Shown in pieces: positions 1-16,458 of a DNA stretch of 42,368 bases (position 1 is its first letter; each line of letters starts with the position of its first letter). The stretch comes from a virus: positions 1-42,368 of the IMG/VR virus record IMGVR_UViG_3300045988_008159; one strand, 5' to 3'. A program made the position numbers and the translations under genes. Under the pieces are notes generated by a model. The model was not told the origin of the DNA, ran no database searches, and worked only from the letters and a program-made list of their open reading frames with translations.

Positions 1-141
1 AGGGCAGCTACGCAAGGCTCGACGCGGCCAAGGCGTTTGACGGGATGGGGATCGAGGAGCGGACGCTGCGGTATGCGGGGGAGGTCTATCATTTCGGAGA
101 CAGCCTCACGCAGCGGATGATCCGCGAGTACAACGCCCAGA
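1..141. repeat. Terminal direct repeat, copy 1 (identical to 42228-42368); overlap of a circular assembly
   Basis: Both window ends read agggcagctacgcaaggctcgacg...gagtacaacgcccaga in the same orientation. The match is 141 nt with no mismatch. Confidence 0.97.
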
Positions 142-3100
142 AGGGGAAAAACAAGGGCGTGAGCGCGGCGGAATACGCGCAGCACGTCCGGGACGTTTTC
201 GACAGAGGCGCGCTGGGTGAAAGCCTTGCAGGCACAAAAGACAGGCTGCTGGGAGACGGCATGACGAGGGCGGCATGGAACGCCGGAAAGGGGTTTATCA
301 ATGGCGAGGAAGCAGGAAGCACGGCTGCTGATGACGGCGGCAAACGGGATGCAGGTATGGATTCCGGAGAACAGGCTGGAGCAGTGGCAGAGGGCACAGG
401 AGGCGCAAAAACGCGATCCGCAAAGGCAAGCGCAGTCGCGGAACGAATTGAGCTCGAAAATCGCGTCCGCGCTGCGGGACAGCCGTACCTGAGCGGAAAG
501 GACATTGGACTGGAAAAGGGGTCGGCGCAGCGGAGCTTCCGCGAGGCCCCGGAGAGCACATGGACGGACAGCATGAAGGCTGCCGCCGCAATGCTCCGGC
601 GCGAGGGCTTCAAGGACGTGCATTTCACGGTCGGCGCGATCAGCATCGAGAATCAAAAAGCGAAGGTCACACGGTACGCGGATGGCGTGGTCATGGGCGA
701 CGCGGTGTGGATCAATGCGACGTCGAAGAAATGGACCGTGGAGCAGCTGGCAAAGCACGAGGCGTTCCACCATCAGATCAAGGACTGGCCGTATGCCATG
801 GACGCGGTGCGGCAGACACTGGCAGACGAGCTGGGCGAGGACGGCATTCAGGAGCTTGCACAGCGGTATGCCGAGGCATACGAGGGCTGCTACGACGGCG
901 CGGAGCTGGATACGTACATCGAAGAGATCTGCGCGGACGCCTACGCGGGCATGGACCGGATGCCGGAAGCAAAGACGCAGATCATACAAAAAGCCGCCCG
1001 GCAGGCGCAGGAGGCCCAGCAGGCGGCAGAAGAAAACGGCGGGACCAGAGGCCCGCCGGAGAAGTATTCAGTCAATGAAGGATTCAGCAAGGATGTCGCG
1101 GAGTGGTATCGAGATGGGATGCCGGAGGGAGAAGCATTCGTGCTTGGCTCTACTGGCGAGACGCTGCAGGGGCTTGGTGCGATTGAAAGCGACGTCTATA
1201 TGAATGGCGATAAGATCAACACCATTCTAAGGGAACATCCAGAAATGACAATCCGGGAGATTCAGAAGATTCCGGAATTGCTGGATGACCCGATTCTGAT
1301 TTTGAAAAGCAAAGGCTCTGGCAAAGGCGGGAACAGCCGTTTGGTGCTGTTCGGCTCGATCAATACGCAGGACGGTCAGCCTGTCCTTGCGGTGCTCGAT
1401 CTGCGTCCAAGGGAGAACGGATTTGTTCTGGACGATATGCAGAAGGTTAACAGCGCATACGCGAAAGCAAACCCCGCATCGTTCATTTCGCAGAGTGACG
1501 TTCTGTTTGCGGACAAAAAAAGAACCGTCCCGCTTCTTCGCCGATTCGGGCTTACAGTAACGTCCCGAGAGCTTCTGCGTGATGGTTCTATAGGTAGTAT
1601 ATCCTACCGTGGGAACAGTGTCAACATCTCGGGAGAGAAATTTTCTTCCATCGTCGAAATGGCAGACCAGCCTATGGATGCGAAATTTTCTGCTGACGAT
1701 ACCACAGCAACGCCGCAGGAAAACGACAAGACCGCACTCGCCTACTTTGGGCGGACATACAAATGGAGCGAGACGGGCTATGTTCTGCTGAACGGTGCGC
1801 GGCTGGACTTCTCCGGACGGCACGAGGGCGGCTCCGGCGGATACCGCAGCGTCGATCACAGGGACATCATTGACGCACTCGGCGAGGACTACGGCGGAGG
1901 AGACTACACGGGCGGCATGGTGCGCTTCATGCAGGAGGGCAACATCCGCATTTCCCCGGAGAGCGGCGGCATCAACCTTGCCGTCATGCCGACGAAGGCA
2001 CAGATGGACTCGCTCAGCGACTTCATCAGCAAGGAGCGCGGCGAGGTCATTCTGGACATTGACGACGCAAGCGGAAACACGATCTCCAGCACGGAGTATC
2101 CGCGCGGCACGCACGCAAACAAGGTTTTGCAGGACATCCGCAATTACTTTAACGACGGCACGCTGCCGGAGGTGAGCAATGCCCCGTCGGTCAGCCAGTT
2201 CCGCTATTCGGTGGCGGAGGATGCGCAGGAGGCGGGTGGGACAACCGCCTTCACGCTGGACAGCATTCCGAAGAAGGCGCAGGACTATCTGCGCAGAGTG
2301 CGCGGGCAGACAGCGGCGGCCATCCAGCAGACGCTTTCGATGCCGTTTGCGGCACGTCAGGAGGTCTTGAAGCCTGCCATTGAGGAAATGATGAACGAAT
2401 ATCTCCAGACCGGCAGGATCTCGCAGGAGACGGTAGACAGGAACTTTGAGGAGTCCTACAGGCGCGGCGTGGAGATGGACACGGAATTTTACGACCAGTA
2501 CAAGGACGTAAAAACGCGGCTGCGCGATCTGAAAGTCACGCTGTCGGAGGCAGACCGGGCGGACATTGCGGACTTTGACGATTTCAGAAGGGCTGCTTCG
2601 GGGCGGCTGCGCATCGCAAACGAGGGCGGATTGCCGGTCGATGTGGCATACAAGGAAATGCAGCAGATGGCGCCGGAGCTGTTCCCGGAGAGCATCACGC
2701 ATCCGGCGGATCAGCTCATGCGGATGTTCGAGGTATCGAAGCGAATCGAGAAGGTGCAGATGTCGCTGGACGAATACCACGGCGAGGACGCGGAGGAATT
2801 CAAGCGCTGGGCAAAGAACGACTACGAGGCCAGCGTGGAGAACATGCTGGGAGCGCTGAATGTGGCAAGGCGGTATGCCGAGGCGCGGATGCGGCAGCAG
2901 CAGGCGCGGGCCGTCCCCACGACGATGGAGGAGGTCAAAAGCCTGTACGCAGACCTCAAGGGCCTGCGGCGGACGTATGAGCGGGCGGCGGCAAAGAACC
3001 TGCTGACGGCGGAGGACAACAGCGTCCTGAATCGCCTCCTGCGCGGCGAGATCACGCCGGAGGACGTGCAGGGCATGGAGAATGCGCAGGGCATCCTTGC

Positions 3101-6100
3101 CATGTACGAGGCAAAGGCAGACTATGACGCGGCGGCGGCGAAGATCGCAGACTGGCGGCGATATCGGAAGGGCAAGCTCCGCGAGCAGGCGGACAACCTT
3201 CTGAAAAACGCGGAGAAGGCCAAGGACAAGACGGCCGGGATCGAGTACAGCCGGGAGACGATGACGCGCAACGTCCGGGATATCTTCCCGGAGGCGGACG
3301 CGGAGGCGATCAACAAGACGTATTTCGAGCCAGTCCGGACGGCCAGCGCGAACGCGAACAAGCTGAAAAACAAGCTGCGCGAGCAGGTCAAGAAGCTGAA
3401 TCTGCGCCGGAAGGCCCGCAAGGGCGACGCCGTGAGCGAGGCGCACGCGGTGCAGCTGCTGGGAGAGGCACAGGACAACATCCGGTATCTGGAGCAGCAC
3501 CCGAGGGCGCAGGACCGGGACGGCAAGACGCTCAATGAATGGCGGCAGATCGTGCTGGATCTGTGGGCGACGAGTCCGGGGCTGGACCGGGCGAAGATCG
3601 AAAACGCCGTGGAGACGTTCCGGAAGATCTATGACGGGCTATTTGAGCAGATGAACGACGTGCGCATCCGAAACGGCTATGAGCCGATCAACTACCGGAA
3701 GGGCTATTTCCCCCACTTCCAGAAGGGGACGACGGACGGCATTCTGGGGCTGATGGGAAAGGCGCTCGGCATCGACGCAGAGGTGACAGCACTGCCGACG
3801 ACCATCAGCGGACTGACGCACACCTTCAAGCCGGGCATCACCTACTTCGGAAATGCGCTGGAGCGCATCGGCTTTGACACGGAGTATGACGCGGTGGCGG
3901 GCTTTGACAAGTACGTGGAGGGCGCGGCCAGCGTGATCTGCTACACGGACGCCATCCAGAAGCTGCGGGCGCTTGCACAGCAAGTGCGATACCGCACATC
4001 GGACGAGGGACTGCGGGAGCGGGTGGACGACGTCCGAGCAAGAGACGATCTGACCGAGCACCAGAAGGAACTGGAGATCGAGGCGATCATGAAGCAGGGG
4101 CGCTTTTCGCTTTCGAACTTCGCGGTGGAGCTGGACGAATACATAAATCTGCTGGCAAACAAGAAGAGCAAGTATGACCGAAGCATGGAGCATCTGGGCG
4201 GGCGCAAGCTCTACAATTTCATGAGGGCATGGCAGAACCGGGTGGCGGCGAACATGGTCGCGGTCAACCCGGCGTCGTGGCTGACGAACTTCGGCGTTAT
4301 CACGCAGGCGGGGGCGCAGCTCAAGACGATCTCCGTGCTCAAGGGAATGTGGCAGACGCTGGCAAACATCAAGACGAGCGACGGACTTGTGGAAGCGAGC
4401 GACTTCCTCACAAACCGCGCCGGAAGCGATCCACTGGTCCGAACCTGGCAGCAGAGCGCAAGCGCGTTTCTGTCCACACCAATGGAGTGGATCGACCAGT
4501 TTTCAGCGGGAACCATTGTCCGGGCACGGTACATGGAGAACATCGAACGCGGCATGAGCGAGGAGACGGCGATGCGCGAGGCGGACGATTTCGCGGCAAA
4601 CGTGATGGCAGACCGCTCGAAGGGCGCGATGCCGACGATCTTTGAGTCGCGAAATCCGCTTATGAAAATGCTCACGCAGTTCCAGCTGGAGGTCAACAAC
4701 ACATATTCGTATCTCTTCAAGGATCTCCCGCGCGAGCAGCGGAAGAAGGGCGTCCGATATCTGGCACTGGCGCTGTTCAAGTTCCTGATCGGCGGATTCC
4801 TTTACAACGAGCTATATGAATATCTCATCGGAAGACGCCCGATGCTCGATCCGCTGGGGATCGTCAACGACACAGTGGGCGATCTGACGGGGTATGAGCT
4901 GAATAATCTGGTGGACGCTGCGACCGGCGGCGGACTTATCAAGGAGTCGGAGCAGGAGAGCGCGATTAGAAGCGCAGGAAACCTTGCAGAAAACGTGCTG
5001 AGTGAGCTCCCGGCAACGGCAGCACTGAACCTTGTCGGGCTCGAAATTGACGGTGGAAAGCTGCCGTTCGGAAGTTCTTTCCCGGACCTCGGGAATATCA
5101 AATCAGCGCTGAACTCGGAGACCGCGACGGACGAGGAAAAGCTGGCGAAGATCGGGAAGGAAATGATCAACCCGGCGGCATACTGGCTGCTGCCGTTCGG
5201 CGGCGGGCAGATCAAGAAAATGTGGCAGGGCATCAGCGCTCTGAAACGGCAGGGCAGCTATACGGCGAACGGGCGGCTCCAGTATCCGATCTACACCGAC
5301 CGGAAGGGAGACAAGGCGAATGCCGTCTGGCGGACGCTGCTGTTCGGCAAGAGCGCGACGCCGGAGGCGCAGGCGTGGGTCGAGGCGGGCTTCGGCGCGC
5401 TGAGCGAGAAGGCGACGCAGACGTATGAGGCGATGCGCGCCGGAGGAGTTGACCAGAGAGACAGCTATGAGCTCATCAAGGCCATGTCCAAGGTCAAAAA
5501 GACCGACACGCAGACCAAGGAGCAGCTGCAAATGCAGCTCCTCAATGCGTTCGACATTGAGGACAGCGGGAAGGTGCTGTACTACTACAACATGATGGCA
5601 AGCGACAAGGAGCGGGCGCAGATCGACAAGCTGCTGGCAGAGGGCGCGGACATGGGAGAATACCTCCGGTATCTGCAAGAAAAGTCCGGCGTGACCGGCG
5701 AGAAGGACGCAGACGGAAAGACGATCTCCGGAAGCGTGAAAGCGGAGACCATCGCGCTGATAGACGGGCTCAATCTGTCGCCGGAACAGAAAACGGAGCT
5801 GGCGAAGGAGGACTACACGCCAACGGGATTTGAGCCTTGGACGGAAAACCACGACAAGCTTTACAAGGCCGTATCGACCGGGAAGGATCTGCGGAGCACG
5901 CTCAAGGGCCTTGAAAAGGACGGATACGAGCCGAAGGAGATCCGCGCGGCCATCACGGACATGTTCCGCGACGAGTATCTGGCGGCGGACAAGGCCGGGA
6001 AAGCAAGGCTCAAGGGATACCTGCGGAACGCATTCATGGTGAGCGGACTTTCGCAGAAGGAAGCGGAAAACAAGATCAAGAAATGGGAGGAGGCGCAGAA

Positions 6101-6104
6101 ATGA
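1..6104 (+). CDS. Giant polyvalent virion protein, C-terminal part (continuation of 39212-42368); zincin HExxH plus a MuF-C/PBECR-like block plus a hydrophobic C-terminal region
   Basis: The frame is open from base 3, so the Met at 45 used by the track is internal. The phase matches 39212 once 42228 is equated with 1. HEAFH lies at 756-770. The block LREHPEMTIREIQKIPELLDDPILILKS lies at about 1230-1310. Hydrophobic stretches lie at about 4230-4330 and 4750-4830. Stop TGA is at 6102-6104. Confidence 0.88.
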   Translation, partial: GSYARLDAAKAFDGMGIEERTLRYAGEVYHFGDSLTQRMIREYNAQKGKNKGVSAAEYAQHVRDVFDRGALGESLAGTKDRLLGDGMTRAAWNAGKGFINGEEAGSTAADDGGKRDAGMDSGEQAGAVAEGTGGAKTRSAKASAVAERIELENRVRAAGQPYLSGKDIGLEKGSAQRSFREAPESTWTDSMKAAAAMLRREGFKDVHFTVGAISIENQKAKVTRYADGVVMGDAVWINATSKKWTVEQLAKHEAFHHQIKDWPYAMDAVRQTLADELGEDGIQELAQRYAEAYEGCYDGAELDTYIEEICADAYAGMDRMPEAKTQIIQKAARQAQEAQQAAEENGGTRGPPEKYSVNEGFSKDVAEWYRDGMPEGEAFVLGSTGETLQGLGAIESDVYMNGDKINTILREHPEMTIREIQKIPELLDDPILILKSKGSGKGGNSRLVLFGSINTQDGQPVLAVLDLRPRENGFVLDDMQKVNSAYAKANPASFISQSDVLFADKKRTVPLLRRFGLTVTSRELLRDGSIGSISYRGNSVNISGEKFSSIVEMADQPMDAKFSADDTTATPQENDKTALAYFGRTYKWSETGYVLLNGARLDFSGRHEGGSGGYRSVDHRDIIDALGEDYGGGDYTGGMVRFMQEGNIRISPESGGINLAVMPTKAQMDSLSDFISKERGEVILDIDDASGNTISSTEYPRGTHANKVLQDIRNYFNDGTLPEVSNAPSVSQFRYSVAEDAQEAGGTTAFTLDSIPKKAQDYLRRVRGQTAAAIQQTLSMPFAARQEVLKPAIEEMMNEYLQTGRISQETVDRNFEESYRRGVEMDTEFYDQYKDVKTRLRDLKVTLSEADRADIADFDDFRRAASGRLRIANEGGLPVDVAYKEMQQMAPELFPESITHPADQLMRMFEVSKRIEKVQMSLDEYHGEDAEEFKRWAKNDYEASVENMLGALNVARRYAEARMRQQQARAVPTTMEEVKSLYADLKGLRRTYERAAAKNLLTAEDNSVLNRLLRGEITPEDVQGMENAQGILAMYEAKADYDAAAAKIADWRRYRKGKLREQADNLLKNAEKAKDKTAGIEYSRETMTRNVRDIFPEADAEAINKTYFEPVRTASANANKLKNKLREQVKKLNLRRKARKGDAVSEAHAVQLLGEAQDNIRYLEQHPRAQDRDGKTLNEWRQIVLDLWATSPGLDRAKIENAVETFRKIYDGLFEQMNDVRIRNGYEPINYRKGYFPHFQKGTTDGILGLMGKALGIDAEVTALPTTISGLTHTFKPGITYFGNALERIGFDTEYDAVAGFDKYVEGAASVICYTDAIQKLRALAQQVRYRTSDEGLRERVDDVRARDDLTEHQKELEIEAIMKQGRFSLSNFAVELDEYINLLANKKSKYDRSMEHLGGRKLYNFMRAWQNRVAANMVAVNPASWLTNFGVITQAGAQLKTISVLKGMWQTLANIKTSDGLVEASDFLTNRAGSDPLVRTWQQSASAFLSTPMEWIDQFSAGTIVRARYMENIERGMSEETAMREADDFAANVMADRSKGAMPTIFESRNPLMKMLTQFQLEVNNTYSYLFKDLPREQRKKGVRYLALALFKFLIGGFLYNELYEYLIGRRPMLDPLGIVNDTVGDLTGYELNNLVDAATGGGLIKESEQESAIRSAGNLAENVLSELPATAALNLVGLEIDGGKLPFGSSFPDLGNIKSALNSETATDEEKLAKIGKEMINPAAYWLLPFGGGQIKKMWQGISALKRQGSYTANGRLQYPIYTDRKGDKANAVWRTLLFGKSATPEAQAWVEAGFGALSEKATQTYEAMRAGGVDQRDSYELIKAMSKVKKTDTQTKEQLQMQLLNAFDIEDSGKVLYYYNMMASDKERAQIDKLLAEGADMGEYLRYLQEKSGVTGEKDADGKTISGSVKAETIALIDGLNLSPEQKTELAKEDYTPTGFEPWTENHDKLYKAVSTGKDLRSTLKGLEKDGYEPKEIRAAITDMFRDEYLAADKAGKARLKGYLRNAFMVSGLSQKEAENKIKKWEEAQK

Positions 6105-11433: not shown

Positions 11434-11641
11434 GATCATCAAGCGGCTCGGGAATCTCCTGAGCGTGAAGAGCCTTGTGACGCTGACGCTGACGGCGGTA
11501 TTTGCGTACATGGCCGTGGTAGGCAAGATCAGCCAGGACTTTATGACGGTGTATGCCGTCGTGATCGCATTCTACTTCGGCACGCAGAGCCAGAAGGTGC
11601 AGGACGCAGTGGATGGAGGCGCAAACAATGCCGGTAATTAA
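11426..11641 (+). CDS. Holin
   Basis: GGAGG lies 8 nt before ATG 11426. The 71-aa product has TM helices (LVTLTLTAVFAYMAVVG, VYAVVIAFYFG). The gene is immediately upstream of the endolysin and overlaps it. Confidence 0.65.
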   Translation: MDKIIKRLGNLLSVKSLVTLTLTAVFAYMAVVGKISQDFMTVYAVVIAFYFGTQSQKVQDAVDGGANNAGN

Positions 11642-12323
11642 GGATGCGCTCACGCCGATCAACCATCGAGCGGGCGGCTGCACGCCGAAATGGATCGTCG
11701 TCCACTACTTCGGTGCGCTCGGCTCTGCGGCCAGCGTGGCCGAGTGGTTCAAAAATCCGCAGGCCAGAGCCAGCGCGCACTACGCCGTGGACGAGGGCGA
11801 TATCATTTACCGGTGCGTAAAGGATACGGATGTGGCGTGGCACTGCGGAGACGGTACGCTGCATCCGGAGTGCCGGAACTGGAACTCAATCGGCGTGGAG
11901 CTGAGGCCGAAGAAGGTCAACCGGAAGCGCATGGGAGCCTACGACACCGACTGGTTCTTCGAGAAAAAGGTGCTGGACAATGCTGAGTGGCTCATCCGCA
12001 AGCTCATGCAGGAGCACAACATTCCGGCGGATCACATCATCCGGCACTATGATGTGTCCGGGAAGTTCTGCCCGCGCCCGTTCGTCGGCACGGACATGAA
12101 CACCTACTATCACACCACTGGCAACGAGCAGTGGAAAAAATTCTTGGAAAGGTTTGAGGACGAAGTGGTAGAAAAAAGCAAAATGATCGTGGACGGCAAG
12201 GAGGTCGCCGTCGAACGCATCCTGAAAAACGGCACGAACTATGTCAAGGTGCGCGATATCGCCGCCGCGCTGGGTCTGAGGGTATCCAATAAGGGCAATA
12301 TCGCCGTGCTGGATAGCAAGTAA
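11628..12323 (+). CDS. Endolysin: N-acetylmuramoyl-L-alanine amidase (Amidase_2/PGRP type) with a C-terminal Cu-amine-oxidase-N1-like wall-binding domain
   Basis: Sequence blocks: IVVHY...ASAHYAVDEGDIIYRCV...VAWHCG, HIIRHYDVSGKFCP, and the C-terminal VDGKEVAVERILKNGTNYVKVRDIAAALGL. GGAGG precedes ATG 11628. Confidence 0.85.
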   Translation: MPVIKDALTPINHRAGGCTPKWIVVHYFGALGSAASVAEWFKNPQARASAHYAVDEGDIIYRCVKDTDVAWHCGDGTLHPECRNWNSIGVELRPKKVNRKRMGAYDTDWFFEKKVLDNAEWLIRKLMQEHNIPADHIIRHYDVSGKFCPRPFVGTDMNTYYHTTGNEQWKKFLERFEDEVVEKSKMIVDGKEVAVERILKNGTNYVKVRDIAAALGLRVSNKGNIAVLDSK

Positions 12324-12332
12324 GGAGGGCAT

Positions 12333-12557
12333 ATGCTGCGGGGGCTGCCGAGTCTGAGCCGCAGCGATTGGGAGCATTTGATCGACGAATGGATTCTTTC
12401 GGAGCGATACCGGGGAATCCTGAAACGGAAGATTCTTGACGATTGGAGCCATGAGCGCATTGCCGAGCGCGAGGGCCTGAGCGTAAACGGCGTCAAGAAG
12501 ATCATAGCGCGGTGCGTGAATGTACTGCGGGAACATGCAACAGAGCCGCCCGGATAG
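12333..12557 (+). CDS. Small sigma-70 region-4-like HTH protein (possible transcription regulator)
   Basis: AAGGAGG RBS. The segment WSHERIAEREGLSVNGVKKIIARCVNVL resembles a sigma r4/LuxR-type HTH. Confidence 0.5.
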   Translation: MLRGLPSLSRSDWEHLIDEWILSERYRGILKRKILDDWSHERIAEREGLSVNGVKKIIARCVNVLREHATEPPG

Positions 12558-12600
12558 GGCGGCTCTTGTGGCAGAATTGCAAATTTAATATTCTGTTGCA

Positions 12601-12629
12601 TTTACAATGAGCTTAATTTGTTCTATAAT
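12601..12629 (+). promoter_or_regulatory. Sigma-70-type promoter of the three-gene moron
   Basis: TTTACA (12601-12606), 17 nt, TATAAT (12624-12629). It lies in an AT-rich gap after the hairpin at 12542-12566. Confidence 0.55.
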
Positions 12630-12662
12630 GGCATCAAAAACAGAGAAGGAGATTATACTACA

Positions 12663-12881
12663 ATGTGCAAGCCTATTTACGCAAATTCGCTGACTGTTAC
12701 TGCGAACGAGGCGAAGAACGAATTTGTTTTTACCTTTAAGCATAAATATCCGGTAGTTGGAGCGAATGGCGTTGTGGACAGCGACCAGGAAGAAACGGTA
12801 GCTGCGGTGATTGTGAATGAGCAGTTAGCAGAGGCACTCCCTGCAATGATGTCCAAAATCCTGAGTGAGCAGGTGGATTGA
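12663..12881 (+). CDS. DUF3467-like small protein (72 aa), first gene of the moron
   Basis: AAGGAG precedes ATG 12663. The track start at 12618 lies upstream of the predicted promoter -10 element. IYANSLTVTANEAKNEFVFTF resembles the DUF3467 core; this rests on recollection only. Confidence 0.6.
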   Translation: MCKPIYANSLTVTANEAKNEFVFTFKHKYPVVGANGVVDSDQEETVAAVIVNEQLAEALPAMMSKILSEQVD

Positions 12882-13240
12882 TGCCTAATTTTTTCGAAGT
12901 TGTTGACAGAAGCGGGATAAAAGTATTCTGCACAAAAGAGCAGTGGGATTCTCATGTGGCGCTTAACCACAGCATCATGGTTTCAAACGTAGACGCAATC
13001 GTGGAGACGATTCGGGAGCCGGAACTAATTTTGCCAAGTCATGACACGAACCCTCCGCTAGATGAACGTCGGATATATACAAAAGAATCGAAAAGTGCTA
13101 CATACTACCCGAAACTCAAATATACGCACGTTGTTGTGTCTGTCTGCGGCGGATCGGGCGAGGTCGTAACCGCATATCCTAATAACAACAAGAAAAGTGG
13201 CTGTGGAGAAGGTGAGGCGATATATGTTGCAGAAGAATAG
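12881..13240 (+). CDS. Putative BECR/RelE-fold-like toxin candidate (119 aa)
   Basis: TGATG overlap with the upstream gene. The pattern W.SHVALNHSIM....IVETIREPELIL...YTHVVVS...GEVVTAYP resembles small phage/TA nuclease-like families (DUF4258/PBECR type). Confidence 0.55.
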   Translation: MPNFFEVVDRSGIKVFCTKEQWDSHVALNHSIMVSNVDAIVETIREPELILPSHDTNPPLDERRIYTKESKSATYYPKLKYTHVVVSVCGGSGEVVTAYPNNNKKSGCGEGEAIYVAEE

Positions 13241-13481
13241 CATCGTATTTGACTACGACAAGAAATTCGACGTCCTGTACATTGCCCTCGGTGACCGCAG
13301 TAATTCTTATGGTGATGATTCCGACGGGAATGTAATCTATCTGAAAGACATTGACACAGATGAATTGACCGGAATAACGATCATGAATTTCAAGAAAAAG
13401 TATATCGAAAACAGGCTCCCTGTATTCTCAAAGAGCATCCGAAAGGTGCTGAGTGAAGCTGAGAAGGTAGTTATGCAGTAA
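13224..13481 (+). CDS. DUF2283-like protein (85 aa), candidate antitoxin partner
   Basis: 17-nt overlap with the upstream gene. FDYDKKFDVLYIALGD and ELTGITIMNFKK match the DUF2283 pattern (YD.e.D.LYI ... G.lvGIeI). Confidence 0.62.
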   Translation: MLQKNSIVFDYDKKFDVLYIALGDRSNSYGDDSDGNVIYLKDIDTDELTGITIMNFKKKYIENRLPVFSKSIRKVLSEAEKVVMQ

Positions 13482-13510
13482 TTGACAGTTGACCACTGAG
13501 CGTATATAAT
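13482..13510 (+). promoter_or_regulatory. Consensus sigma-70 promoter
   Basis: TTGACA (13482-13487), exactly 17 nt, TATAAT (13505-13510). It begins one base after the DUF2283-like stop codon. Confidence 0.65.
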
Positions 13511-13549
13511 ATGCGTGTAGCACAAAAGGATATTCGGTATTCTTTCCAA

Positions 13550-13578
13550 GGGCTGGTGCCTGCACCGGCCCCGTTTTT
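13550..13578 (+). terminator. Intrinsic terminator T1
   Basis: A 9-bp stem (gggctggtg/caccggccc) with a 4-nt loop, followed by cg and TTTTT. Confidence 0.6.
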
Positions 13579-13590
13579 CTATATACAAGG

Positions 13591-13619
13591 CAGCCACTCC
13601 GTAAGGGGTGGCTGTTTTT
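13591..13619 (+). terminator. Intrinsic terminator T2
   Basis: A 10-bp stem (cagccactcc/ggggtggctg) with a GTAA loop, followed by TTTTT. Confidence 0.7.
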
Positions 13620-13738
13620 ATATCTTTTGTGCCCGAAAAGTGGCCGAAGAGTTGGTTTTTTGTTCTTCGTGGATGCCTCATAATGAGCATAGGAGCTGGC
13701 CAGCTTACTATTTTATCGGAGGTACTACTATGGAATAC

Positions 13739-14311
13739 GCAAGCAATGGCAAGGCCAATGCGGCCCTGACAACTGGTATCATCGGCACGGCGGGCGTCGG
13801 CCTCGGACTGCTCGGCAATCTGCTCGGCGGAGGCTGGTGCGGTATCGGCGCAAATCCGGCTGCTGCGGCTGTAGCGGCGGGCATGTGCAGCGAGAATATG
13901 CCGGTCACGCGCTATGAGCTGGAAAGAGAAAACAAGCTCGCGCAGAAGGACAGCGAGATCGCGATGCTCAAGGCGAACACCTACGGCGATCAGAAGATGC
14001 TGGAGATGTACGCTTACATCGACGGCCAGCTCAAGGACGTGCGGAAGTCCCTGTGCGATCAGGCAGTCCACAACCAGCGCACCGAGGACAGCTTCGTGCT
14101 GGCCCGCCAGGACATCGCGTCCGTCAAGGACGAGCTGCACCGCGAGATCGAGATGGAGGCCGAACGGCGCTGCTGCGGCGACAACAGCATTGTCACCTAC
14201 GCCAACGCGACGTTTTATCCCAAGCAGGTGGCAGACGTCACCACGGGCACCGCAACCACGGCGCAGACGCTCTACAACCCGCTTCCGAAGTGCGGGTGCT
14301 GCAACAGCTAA
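13739..14311 (+). CDS. Membrane-anchored coiled-coil protein with a Cys-rich C-terminus (190 aa), unknown function
   Basis: GGAGG lies 8 nt before ATG 13739. The N-terminus is Gly-rich and hydrophobic (GIIGTAGVGLGLLGNLLGGGW). The C-terminus reads KCGCCNS. The 13511 start in the track would read through the terminators. Confidence 0.65.
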   Translation, partial: ASNGKANAALTTGIIGTAGVGLGLLGNLLGGGWCGIGANPAAAAVAAGMCSENMPVTRYELERENKLAQKDSEIAMLKANTYGDQKMLEMYAYIDGQLKDVRKSLCDQAVHNQRTEDSFVLARQDIASVKDELHREIEMEAERRCCGDNSIVTYANATFYPKQVADVTTGTATTAQTLYNPLPKCGCCNS

Positions 14312-14360
14312 GAAAAAGGGGCGGCAATCGCCGCCCCATCCTTAAAGGAGGAAATCTGCA

Positions 14361-14702
14361 ATGACAGTGACGATAGATCAGGCCATGCGCGGCGCGATGC
14401 GCTACGCAGACAATGAGGTCATCCCGCACCTGCCGGGCGGCAAGGGCATCGGGGCCGGGATCGCGCTTGCGCTTATCATGGATGGCAGCAAGGCGCAGTT
14501 GCTCAAGCTGCGTGAAAATCCGGCGGTGCAGATGATGGGCGTGATGGACGAGGCCGGGAACATCGACCTTGACCGGCTCTATAATGCGGCAAGGCCGCGC
14601 TTTGACGGACAGAAGCTGCCGGTCACGGTGCCGATCATTGGCGAGCTGCGATTCGATGTGAGCGATCTCGACAAGCTTTACAGATACATTCAGGAGGCGT
14701 GA
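14361..14702 (+). CDS. Hypothetical protein (113 aa)
   Basis: AAAGGAGG RBS. The stop overlaps the start region of the next gene. Confidence 0.65.
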   Translation: MTVTIDQAMRGAMRYADNEVIPHLPGGKGIGAGIALALIMDGSKAQLLKLRENPAVQMMGVMDEAGNIDLDRLYNAARPRFDGQKLPVTVPIIGELRFDVSDLDKLYRYIQEA

Positions 14703-14704
14703 GC

Positions 14705-15193
14705 ATGAAAGATTACATCAACGGACTGTACGCGCGGCTGGAGGAGCTTTCCGAAAAGCCGCTGACGCTGGGACACATCGAAGAGGCTGATGCAGTGGCG
14801 GGCCTCCTGTGCCGCCTGCATAAGCTCGACGGAATGGATGGAGACCATTTTCGTGAGTCCACGAAAATGACGGAATTCTCCAGAGAAGATGCCATGCGCT
14901 GGGCGGAGCACATGCAGAACGCCGACGGCACGGTCGGGCCGCACTGGACGATGGATCAGACTTCCGCCGTCGCGGATGCGAGCGGCATCCCGCACGGCAT
15001 CCCCCGCTGGGCGTGGGGTGTGACCATGAACATGATGTACTCGGACTACTACGATGTGGCGCGGAAGTTCGGAGTCAACGTGCCGGAGTTCTACGCGGAA
15101 CTGGCACGGGCGTTCTTGATGGACAAGGACGGCCCCGGCCCGGAGGAAAAGCTTTGTGCGTATTACAGGTGCATTGTGAAGCAAAACCGTTAG
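14705..15193 (+). CDS. Conserved prophage/ICE-associated protein of unknown function (162 aa)
   Basis: GGAGG lies 7 nt before ATG 14705. The motif HMQNADGTVGPHWTMDQT...MNMMYSDYYDVA recurs, by recollection, in Firmicute mobile elements. Confidence 0.7.
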   Translation: MKDYINGLYARLEELSEKPLTLGHIEEADAVAGLLCRLHKLDGMDGDHFRESTKMTEFSREDAMRWAEHMQNADGTVGPHWTMDQTSAVADASGIPHGIPRWAWGVTMNMMYSDYYDVARKFGVNVPEFYAELARAFLMDKDGPGPEEKLCAYYRCIVKQNR

Positions 15194-15416: not shown

Positions 15417-15440
15417 ATTAAGCATTTTGGTTAGCATTTT
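15417..15440 (+). repeat. ATTAAGCATTTT / GGTTAGCATTTT repeats, candidate arm-type sites (P' arm)
   Basis: They share the TAGCATTTT core, in the same orientation, with 15188-15212. They overlap the last codons of int. Confidence 0.45.
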
Positions 15441-16458
15441 CTGCGAAAAAGGCGGCGATTTTATTCTGACTCTTGAGTCGGTCGGCCTGCGCGAGGTGCG
15501 TATAAATCTTGAGCATGGTATCGCTGTCGGCCCAGCCGCCAAGCTCCATTGTTTCCTGCGCAGACAAGCCAAGATGATATGCCAGCGACGCGAAGCTGTG
15601 GCGCAGGCCGTGGACGCCGACCGCCGGGAGACCGTTGTTTTTGCAGATGGTATTGATGCGCCAATACAACGTTGTGGGATTGGCGTCGTAGATCAAGCCG
15701 GTGCGCTGTTCAGGAGGCACGGCTTCGATGGCTGCCGCAAGGGCTGGAATCATGATCGGGATAACGCGGCGGGAGCTGGCATTCTTATTTTCGGCCTTTT
15801 GCACCATTGCGCCGTCACGGTCGAGGACTGCGGCACCGTGGACGGTGATGGTGCCGCGTTTAAGGTCGATTTTGTCGTAGGTCATGGCGAGAATCTCGGA
15901 GCGCCGGAGGCCGTGCAGAGCCAAAAGCATAGGAATTTCAAAACGGTCGCCGTGAATGAGTCGGACGAATTCCGGAAGTTGCTCCGGCTCGAGCCAAAGC
16001 TTCTCCGCCTTGTGAGGCTGCGGCAGGCGGATGCGTGGGACGGGGATCTCTGCACTGCGCAGGGCAGACGAAAGCAGGCCCCACGCATTTTTTACGGTTT
16101 TCGGAGAGACAGACTTTGCTTCGGCATCGATCACGGCCTGCCAGTCGCGCACGCTCGACGGGGTCTTATCCATGACCGATGCGAATCGCGTCGAAGCAAC
16201 GCTTAAGTAGCCTCGCACTGTCGATGGAGACGTACCGGCGGGCAGTGCGTCAATATAATCCTGTATAATGTCGCGGACGGTCTTGTCCGTCTTATATTTG
16301 ACTTCGCGGGCGTCGGCGCGGTGCTGGGCCTTGATGAGCTGCGCCTGCTTGATGCAGTCGGAGCGCGTGAGGGCGGAGACGGGGATGCTCTCGCCGCCAA
16401 GGCGGAGCTGGATGAACCATGTGCCGGATTTCAGCTTTCGAGGCTCGGGGACTTTCAT
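15418..16458 (-). CDS. int: Tyrosine recombinase (phage integrase)
   Basis: The 346-aa product contains LALHGLRRSEI, HGLRHSFASLAY and LGGWADSDTMLKIYTHL (R..H.R..Y catalytic pattern). GGAGG RBS. The gene is adjacent to the tRNA-like attP. Confidence 0.92.
   Translation of the reverse strand: MKVPEPRKLKSGTWFIQLRLGGESIPVSALTRSDCIKQAQLIKAQHRADAREVKYKTDKTVRDIIQDYIDALPAGTSPSTVRGYLSVASTRFASVMDKTPSSVRDWQAVIDAEAKSVSPKTVKNAWGLLSSALRSAEIPVPRIRLPQPHKAEKLWLEPEQLPEFVRLIHGDRFEIPMLLALHGLRRSEILAMTYDKIDLKRGTITVHGAAVLDRDGAMVQKAENKNASSRRVIPIMIPALAAAIEAVPPEQRTGLIYDANPTTLYWRINTICKNNGLPAVGVHGLRHSFASLAYHLGLSAQETMELGGWADSDTMLKIYTHLAQADRLKSQNKIAAFFAENANQNA

Follow-up and report, generated by a model that had tools for sequence, protein, structure and literature searches.

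A three-gene phage cassette with a predicted BECR-fold RNase, a DUF2283-like protein and a DUF3467-like protein as a candidate tripartite toxin-antitoxin module

The 42,368-nucleotide stretch of DNA analyzed here, hereafter the window (IMG/VR virus record IMGVR_UViG_3300045988_008159, positions 1 to 42,368), comes from a temperate siphovirus-type gut phage and carries a compact 0.9-kb cassette of three small genes, which we call g1, g2 and g3. The explanation that we favor, with guarded confidence, is that the cassette is a moron gained by horizontal transfer, a self-contained toxin-antitoxin-type module of three parts in which g2 is the toxin, g3 the neutralizer and g1 an accessory. Under this model the cassette's own promoter would drive transcription, probably during lysogeny. 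The g2 product would be a small metal-independent endoribonuclease of the BECR fold, from the PBECR2/DUF4258 (colicin-like) branch, with His25 (N-terminal helix) and Thr97 (last strand) as its likely catalytic residues, and g3, encoded in an overlapping frame, would be its dedicated neutralizing partner. The g1 product would be an interchangeable third component that stabilizes the antitoxin or the toxin-antitoxin complex, or serves either of them as an adaptor or trigger sensor, like the chaperone of toxin-antitoxin-chaperone (TAC) systems, and the module as a whole would benefit the prophage through addiction, abortive infection or exclusion. What we show are the layout of the genes and their expression signals, the foreign composition of the cassette, purifying selection on its genes and their strict linkage across many contexts, and the distant family ties and conserved active-site pattern of the proteins; the toxicity of g2, the identity of the neutralizing protein, the role of g1 and any defense phenotype are inferences.

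Results

The three genes overlap on the plus strand, at the coordinates and in the orientation given in an initial annotation that had been made from the sequence alone (Table 1). The start codon of g2 and the stop codon of g1 have one base in common (TGATG), g3 overlaps g2 by 17 nucleotides, and a Shine-Dalgarno-like sequence lies ahead of all three genes. With a guanine-plus-cytosine (G+C) content of 44.1%, compared with 58.2% in the rest of the window, the cassette is the lowest-G+C 1-kb stretch of the window, and its composition is for this reason regarded as foreign to the phage. The lower G+C content had been noticed in the initial annotation from hand counts of individual 60-nucleotide lines (17, 31, 27, 27 and 25 in the cassette and 38 in the flank), and every one of these counts is exact. 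When compared with homologues, g1, g2 and g3 have ratios of nonsynonymous to synonymous substitution rates (dN/dS) of 0.04–0.30, which indicates purifying selection on all three; g1 is the fastest-evolving gene, with ratios of 0.12–0.30 compared with 0.04–0.15 for g3.

Linkage among the three genes is complete. A hidden Markov model (HMM) scan of all fetched loci, referred to by L numbers where they need to be told apart, and of the window found g1 directly upstream and g3 overlapping downstream wherever a full g2 was present (41 fetched loci and the window, 42 of 42), in a set that takes in homologues with 49–51% g2 identity, the Lawsonibacter hominis locus among them. No locus has g2 without g3, as would be expected of a toxin gene and its neutralizer. 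The trio occurs in at least 10 genomic contexts, including an endolysin and a sigma-like gene on one side with an integrase module after it, a tail fibre and holin on one side with a giant ART-PolyVal protein on the other, PH_gly_zipper/SHOCT genes with an antirepressor region, a prophage edge adjoining host genes, a serine recombinase with radical-SAM genes and, outside phages, a megaplasmid and a small plasmid. A compact operon with overlapping frames that stays linked across contexts in this way has the layout of a type II toxin-antitoxin system. The cassette is common among human-gut metagenome contigs, and Lawsonibacter hominis is its sole match in a one-genome-per-species set of 185,579. 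The three families are nonetheless small, as g1, g2 and g3 fall into 7, 12 and 39 clusters, respectively, in a collection of 5.8 billion proteins, and one g3 variant alone was found on 170 contigs.

Co-occurrence of the three families elsewhere, which the initial annotation had named as a test of its proposal, is strongly borne out beyond the Clostridia as well. A megaplasmid of Anoxybacillus amylolyticus encodes, in this order, a DUF3467 protein, a 128-residue hypothetical protein and a DUF2283 protein. The first of these is a bona fide DUF3467 member (40.7 bits, cutoff 25), and the second scores 48 bits to the g2 profile and matches PBECR2 across 18–119 of 120 positions (E-value, E, 1.2e-4). 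The same trio is present in Staphylococcus phage phiSP119-2 and on a plasmid of S. nepalensis. On a Leptospira noguchii plasmid the g2-like gene and the DUF2283 gene are kept, and the first gene encodes a protein of UPF0175, an antitoxin-type family. All three genera keep the pair, with either DUF3467 or UPF0175 in first position; judged from these comparisons, g2 and DUF2283 are thus the constant core of the module, and the first gene is exchangeable.

Natural decay of the cassette is seen in a closely related phage at L015:2760-3250, and also in L016 and L017 (eight contigs). There the promoter is intact, g1 and g2 codons 1–80 are deleted, and g3 is kept with its C terminus frameshifted past about residue 57. 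Loss of g2 with retention of g3 is an indirect hint at a toxin and its neutralizer.

The description of g2 as BECR-like in the initial annotation holds at the level of distant homology. The window g2 scores 16.4 bits against DUF4258 (PF14076; cutoff 25, E 0.011) and 13.2 bits against PBECR2 (PF18810; cutoff 27.1, E 0.1). Among the members of its family, 10 of 11 match DUF4258 (best E 7.8e-4) and 8 of 11 match PBECR2 (best E 1.3e-3), and divergent homologues match PBECR2 nearly end to end, with E of 1.2e-4 and 6.5e-5. The top PBECR2 scores among the homologues, 23.6 and 22.7 bits, are both below the gathering score of 27.1. Since the matches recur across members, distant homology of g2 to PBECR2/DUF4258 is likely by sequence, whereas the scores fall short of formal family membership. 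Five residues (D9, H25, H30, P47 and T97) are invariant across 12 aligned sequences reaching down to 19% identity. Three of them, His25, His30 and Thr97, lie in the H..NH...TAY pattern that the initial annotation had singled out; His25 is within the helix at residues 19–27 and Thr97 is on the last strand, which amounts to a conserved active-site pattern.

Structure prediction may point in the same direction. AlphaFold modeled g2 with a predicted local distance difference test (pLDDT) score of 82 and a predicted template-modeling score of 0.78, with one of five models confident. The model has strands at residues 3–8 and 14–18, helices at 19–27, 31–35 and 37–45, and four strands between 49 and 101, and this predicted topology fits a colicin-like BECR domain with extra N-terminal strands, an elaboration of the colicin-like core that has been described for phage PBECR domains (bioRxiv 10.64898/2026.08.28.747851). 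In a Foldseek search of BFVD, the best matches were the C-terminal regions of MuF "minor capsid protein," "Nuclease" and PolyVal ADP-ribosyltransferase polyvalent proteins, with template-modeling (TM) scores of 0.5–0.64, probabilities of 0.94–1.0 and E of 2.5e-3 to 0.1; the match to the MuF "minor capsid protein" had a TM score of 0.64 and a root-mean-square deviation of 2.5 Å. The same search of PDB gave no significant match, and weak ones to HigB1, Cami1, ParE2 and RelE2 had E >1. Sequence-profile searches of PDB with g1, g2 and g3 found nothing meaningful, and the matches to EcoRII and TcdB that appeared in them were set aside as chance. An HMM scan of all open reading frames found no MuF-fused paralogue of g2 in the window.

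In several phages the cassette adjoins giant polyvalent proteins of 2600–2900 residues with ART-PolyVal, MuF_C and LPD3 domains (L001:4670-8372, L003, L004 and L021:1-2248). These proteins belong to the class whose PBECR domains g2 resembles.

The likeness of g3 to DUF2283 (PF10049) holds as a distant relationship: 14 of 18 family members match (best E 8.7e-6), and the window g3 itself is just below threshold (20.6 bits, cutoff 23, E 5e-4). Existing annotation assigns its positional counterparts in Anoxybacillus and Leptospira to DUF2283, the Leptospira one scoring 23.7 bits, and some database sources give close relatives of g3 the same name. A C-terminal tail of about 29 residues extends past the DUF2283 core. 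In PHROGs g3 is assigned to phrog_36767, for which the function is given as unknown. Searches of the INPHARED phage collection yielded for g3 only a weak match in Lactobacillus phage 3-521, with neighboring genes unrelated to g1 and g2, and for g1 and g2 no match at either the DNA or the protein level. The frequent pairing of DUF2283 with DUF4258 asserted in the initial annotation was not found in the literature searched, and the g2-like/DUF2283 pairs reported here are the only ones that we can point to. No functional work on DUF2283 was found in that literature either; a "DUF2283" mention in connection with FseA (PMC4755241) concerns an unrelated activator of an integrative and conjugative element and was not used.

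The likeness of g1 to DUF3467 (PF11950), also proposed initially, emerges from its wider family and from the bona fide Anoxybacillus equivalent, not from the window protein, which matches nothing in Pfam even at E up to 10 and does not reach the DUF3467 gathering score. A profile search of 1.84 billion representatives widened the g1 family by about 19 further full-length proteins of 67–79 residues. DUF3467 matches are found in 12 of the 27 superfamily members (best E 0.0019), and no other family recurs. Scored with the g1 profile, five DUF3467 or DUF3467-like proteins all give 7–13.5 bits, and the remaining proteins tested give less than 0. By sequence, g1 is a distant relative of DUF3467 and not a formal member. 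Y6, N8 and E20 are invariant. The predicted fold consists of three long beta-strands and a C-terminal helix (pLDDT 70, shallow alignment), for which Foldseek found only weak matches in PDB (levivirus coat proteins and LptE, TM score about 0.4) and no convincing structural neighbor. A search of viral contigs with the g1-like protein P0063 found no related loci.

A link between g1-like proteins and a second kind of operon is new here. A g1 subfamily with the motif ML.YANSFS... is encoded by the third gene of operons that begin with a HigB/Gp49-like gene and an XRE helix-turn-helix (HTH) gene, in three independent lineages (L049, L051/L052 and L053). The first gene encodes a protein of 132–145 residues with a HigB/Gp49-like C-terminal motif. 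A Gp49 match was obtained for one of three members (E 0.039) and a PDB search was empty, so a firm Gp49/HigB identity for the L049-type protein was not reached and we label it HigB/Gp49-like by motif and position. The second gene encodes an XRE protein with an HTH_3 domain (E 9e-16 for the L049-type operon), and the XRE antitoxins of L049, L051 and L053 have a tail of about 50 residues past the HTH domain. In L051 the next gene (3021-3506, about 300 nucleotides away) encodes a ToxN/AbiQ toxin (E 3.7e-25 to PDB 4ATO). As third genes of these operons in three lineages, one of them near ToxN/AbiQ, g1-like proteins look like toxin-antitoxin accessories.

Marinitoga camini virus 2 (L063:560-1569) has a gene for a DUF3467-like protein of 87 residues followed by genes for proteins of 116 and 132 residues. 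The 132-residue protein has weak MazF matches in PDB (E 0.17–0.5), which we treat as a lead and not as evidence; judged by sequence, this could be a third kind of toxin module that includes a DUF3467-like gene.

The promoter TTTACA-17-TATAAT and the two intrinsic terminators described in the initial annotation are present (Table 1), and a second, perfect promoter that it had not listed follows the g3 stop codon, ahead of the terminators. Only three sigma-70 sites with at least 11 of 12 consensus positions occur on the two strands of the whole window together, and two of them bracket the cassette. In Markov simulations with the cassette's own composition, 0.028 such sites are expected per region by chance, and two sites appeared in 0 of 1000 runs. 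Equivalents of promoter 1 were found in L006 (TTGAAA-17-TATAAT) and L011. Because it has its own promoter and its own terminators, the cassette is probably expressed independently of the late genes, the lysogen included.

The imperfect palindrome upstream of promoter 1 is retained in L014 and L015, and in other lineages different inverted repeats occupy the same place, namely ACATTTGTTGC-N10-GCAACAAATGT in L018 and perfect 12-nucleotide arms in L058. Their position is suggestive of operators, a weak indication given that such repeats arise easily in AT-rich DNA. Promoter 2 is kept in L014 and L009, though the transcribed sequence differs, and is absent from other lineages. A short transcript of about 62 (or about 110) nucleotides might start from it, with a predicted 5' hairpin (13525-13545) followed by the terminator hairpin. 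No convincing target for the predicted 62-nucleotide RNA was found within the window. Pairing with the cassette mRNA was considered and dropped, as no complementarity stood out except with the RNA's own antisense strand; the best pairings lie elsewhere, at about -27 kcal/mol, and form irregular structures.

In the window, the cassette follows the endolysin gene and a gene for a protein with only a Sigma70_r4 domain. The initial annotation had placed it between the lysis genes and the phage attachment site (attP); the upstream side of this placement is right, but the cassette is not adjacent to attP, three genes (13730-15193) lying in between, and its slot is better described as part of the accessory region that runs from the lysis genes to the integrase. 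These three genes recur in relatives with an intact cassette (L011 and L014) or a decayed one (L015). The Sigma70_r4-only gene ends in a hairpin (12542-12566); its position is kept in L014, a similar gene occurs in L001, and another lies downstream of g3 in L015. No match came from whole-window scans for tRNAs and for Rfam families at gathering thresholds.

Table 1. Positions of the cassette, its signals and its neighbors in the window, and of related genes at other loci
Feature	Position	Strand	Remarks
Tape-measure gene	45-6104		
Endolysin gene, Amidase_2	11613-12323		directly upstream of the sigma-like gene
Gene for 74-aa protein, Sigma70_r4 only	12333-12557		directly after the endolysin gene
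Imperfect 24-nt palindrome CAGAATTGCAAATTTAATATTCTG	12572-12595	+	just upstream of the -35 hexamer; candidate operator
Promoter 1, sigma-70-type TTTACA-17-TATAAT	12601-12629	+	11/12 consensus positions
g1	12663-12881	+	72 aa; DUF3467-like, predicted accessory protein
g2	12881-13240	+	119 aa; stand-alone PBECR2/DUF4258-type BECR-fold protein, predicted RNase toxin
g3	13224-13481	+	85 aa; DUF2283-like, predicted antitoxin or immunity protein
Promoter 2, perfect TTGACA-17-TATAAT	13482-13510	+	between the g3 stop codon and the terminators
Intrinsic terminator 1	13550-13579	+	hairpin 13550-13571, 9-bp GC-rich stem, then T run
Intrinsic terminator 2	13587-13628	+	hairpin 13587-13618, 14-bp stem, then T run
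Gene for 193-aa Gly-rich protein starting MEYASNG	13730-14311		between cassette and integrase
Gene for 113-aa protein	14361-14702		between cassette and integrase
Gene for 164-aa DUF7841 protein	14699-15193		between cassette and integrase
Tyrosine integrase gene	15418-16458	-	AT-rich gap on the side of the cassette
HigB/Gp49-like + XRE + g1-like operon	L049:150-1186		
HigB/Gp49-like + XRE + g1-like operon	L051:1689-2722		
HigB/Gp49-like + XRE + g1-like operon	L053:155-1273		
Solo gene for 104-aa DUF3467 protein	L060:1444-1758		phage phiSP44-1, temperate, Staphylococcus pseudintermedius
Solo gene for 104-aa DUF3467 protein	L061:1429-1743		phage QT1, temperate, Staphylococcus pseudintermedius
aa, amino acids; bp, base pairs; nt, nucleotides.

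Discussion

With regard to its toxin candidate, the cassette resembles a known group of proteins and also departs from it. Like PBECR2, DUF4258 and Ntox49 proteins, g2 and its homologues match both Pfam models over a core of alpha-helix plus four strands. All g2 scores, however, are below gathering thresholds. In addition, g2 is a stand-alone protein of 119 residues and does not form the C-terminal end of a large virion protein, and its gene is tied to those of two small partners. A description of the trio was not found in the literature searched, where DUF3467 received only an unrelated mention, and NCBIfam held nothing relevant for g1, g2 or g3.

Several observations weigh against reading the cassette as a tripartite toxin-antitoxin module. 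On the side of the toxin, DUF4258 is listed with unknown function (PMC11980606), and solo PBECR domains may serve the phage's own RNA metabolism (PMC5512222). The Pfam matches of the window's own proteins all stay below the gathering score, a single AlphaFold model of g2 out of five is confident, its Foldseek matches have borderline E-values (no better than 2.5e-3 in BFVD and >1 in PDB), and none of the three proteins has a match in PADLOC-DB v2 at E up to 1. On the side of the accessory, solo DUF3467 genes without g2 or g3 lie directly after the endolysin gene in Staphylococcus phages (Table 1), and the gene for the g1-like protein P0067 stands alone beside a housekeeping gene, with no toxin-antitoxin neighbors. 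From these solo genes and P0067 we conclude that the DUF3467 family has, or can have, a function independent of toxins. Finally, the deletion in L015 removes g1 and g2 together and leaves the choice between g1 and g3 as the antitoxin undistinguished. As a side observation, the slot after the lysis genes is used by DUF3467 alone in phiSP44-1 and QT1, as it is by the trio here.

In our analysis g1, not g3, could be the neutralizer, because the usual gene order around DUF4258 is antitoxin first, then toxin (PMC11980606), and because the antitoxin-type UPF0175 holds the g1 position in Leptospira. An arrangement in which the first-encoded g1 is the antitoxin and g3 the accessory, as a regulator, adaptor or second immunity protein, would also suit the faster evolution of g1 relative to g3, and there is a precedent for two immunity proteins acting on one prophage toxin (PMC11699363). 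We nevertheless consider this arrangement unlikely. The g2-like genes always have DUF2283 as a partner, whereas the first gene can be swapped; in the second type of operon the antitoxin role is already filled by the XRE protein, with the g1-like gene as an extra; and DUF3467 genes occur solo, without any toxin. For a g1 that neutralizes nothing, a purely regulatory role is the alternative to one directed at the proteins of the complex, and it seems the less likely of the two because the XRE antitoxin of the second operon already supplies DNA binding.

Among known systems, the closest parallel to the favored model, in which g1 is an accessory to a g2/g3 toxin-antitoxin pair, is provided by TAC modules. 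TAC chaperones are modular third components of phage-defense toxin-antitoxin systems (bioRxiv 10.1101/2024.02.24.581848; PMC5105189), in which the chaperone protects the antitoxin and detects proteins of phages (PMC5105189, PMC6377645, bioRxiv 10.1101/2024.02.24.581848). As in the TAC systems HigB-HigA-SecB-like and CmdTAC, three translationally coupled genes form the module, the toxin is RNA-targeting (by prediction, in our case), a small third component is attached to different toxin-antitoxin pairs (here g2/DUF2283 and HigB-like/XRE), the putative antitoxins have C-terminal extensions past their core domain, and both kinds of module are found on mobile elements and in defense neighborhoods. 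The differences are that g1 has 72 residues compared with about 150–180 for the chaperone, that it is encoded first in the trio whereas the TAC chaperone is encoded last, and that it has no detectable SecB similarity. When the g1 superfamily was aligned with E. coli SecB, a sequence checked against PDB entry 5jtl, hhalign gave a probability of 0.2%, a comparison of low power with a single-sequence template and one more point on the unfavorable side. No SecB structure appeared among the PDB Foldseek matches of the g1 model (pLDDT 70). SecB homology of g1 is not supported, and we regard the likeness to TAC as one of analogy and not of membership.

Within this analogy we offer a more far-reaching proposal, which is tentative and which we hold to be rather doubtful as a whole. 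Proteins of the DUF3467 type, about 70–100 residues long, might form a previously unrecognized class of modular third component in toxin-antitoxin or abortive-infection systems, as small, non-SecB equivalents of the chaperone that doubles as phage sensor in TAC modules. They would serve at least two unrelated pairs (PBECR-like/DUF2283 and HigB/Gp49-like/XRE) and would gate toxin release, for example by sensing a protein of an infecting phage.

Third genes also accompany toxin-antitoxin pairs in the omega-epsilon-zeta, paaR2-paaA2-parE2 and pasABC modules, where they encode a regulator or an enhancer of neutralization. The cassette shares with these modules a third operon gene and, at its promoter, palindromes that are candidate operators; the protein families are unrelated, however, and g1 has no recognizable DNA-binding fold. 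A different parallel comes from the Bacteroides prophage toxin Bxa, which is neutralized by two immunity proteins, Bsi and BAH (PMC11699363). Both loci combine a prophage toxin (a predicted one in our case) with two separate small proteins that are, or in our case may be, protective. Bxa differs in being an exported ADP-ribosyltransferase with a trafficking domain, the families are again unrelated, and one of the Bacteroides immunity proteins works enzymatically, undoing the modification.

A reading without any antitoxin is that g2 is an RNase effector working for the phage against transcripts of the host or of rival phages, or against RNA-guided host defense, in the manner of RegB or of injected PBECR domains, with g1 and g3 tuning its specificity or activity. 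PBECR domains are typically offensive or counter-defense effectors and occur as solo forms in phages (PMC5512222), the cassette adjoins giant polyvalent proteins in L001-L005 and L021, and the best structural matches of g2 are MuF and polyvalent proteins. We judge this reading distinctly improbable: the module is also found on plasmids and next to host genes where there are no virion genes, a promoter and terminators of its own set it apart from the late operon, its compact, overlapping and mobile three-gene layout is typical of toxin-antitoxin modules, and relatives of g1 occur in classical toxin-antitoxin-type operons and in a defense neighborhood.

The resemblance of g2 to MuF C-terminal domains also raises the idea that the cassette is what is left of a polymorphic toxin-immunity set, in which a detached MuF-type toxin tip and its immunity genes would shield lysogens from toxins delivered by related phages or bacteria and would not work as an addiction module inside the cell. 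DUF4258 overlaps Ntox49, which is present on MuF and other polymorphic toxins (PMC3482391), and MuF toxins occur specifically in temperate phages that infect Firmicutes (PMC5576092). Such an origin is very unlikely in our estimation, given that g2 is complete and stand-alone, under strong purifying selection and with its active-site pattern intact, that the window holds no MuF-fused paralogue, and that the trio moves as a fixed unit and not as swapped toxin tips. Most improbable of all is that unrelated accessory genes happen to travel together and resemble the three families by chance: the sub-threshold Pfam matches of the window proteins and the empty PADLOC, NCBIfam and PDB sequence searches would fit such a grouping, but the same families, order and overlapping frames recur in Clostridia, Bacillaceae and Staphylococcus, many independent members match the same Pfam families, and the catalytic-type residues are invariant.

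If the cassette is simply a toxin-antitoxin pair of two components plus a regulator, it would be a modest addition to the catalogue of BECR toxins. If the tripartite model is true, DUF3467, DUF4258/PBECR2-like and DUF2283 proteins gain a joint, testable role, which for DUF3467 is a new candidate role, and, with the trio conserved from Clostridia phages to elements of Bacillaceae and Staphylococcus, many genes would be annotated at once. If DUF3467 is moreover a swappable chaperone or sensor, the TAC principle, in which a modular third protein links a toxin-antitoxin "warhead" to its trigger, would reach beyond SecB. Such an outcome would also offer a handle on the prophage-encoded defense of hard-to-culture gut Firmicutes.

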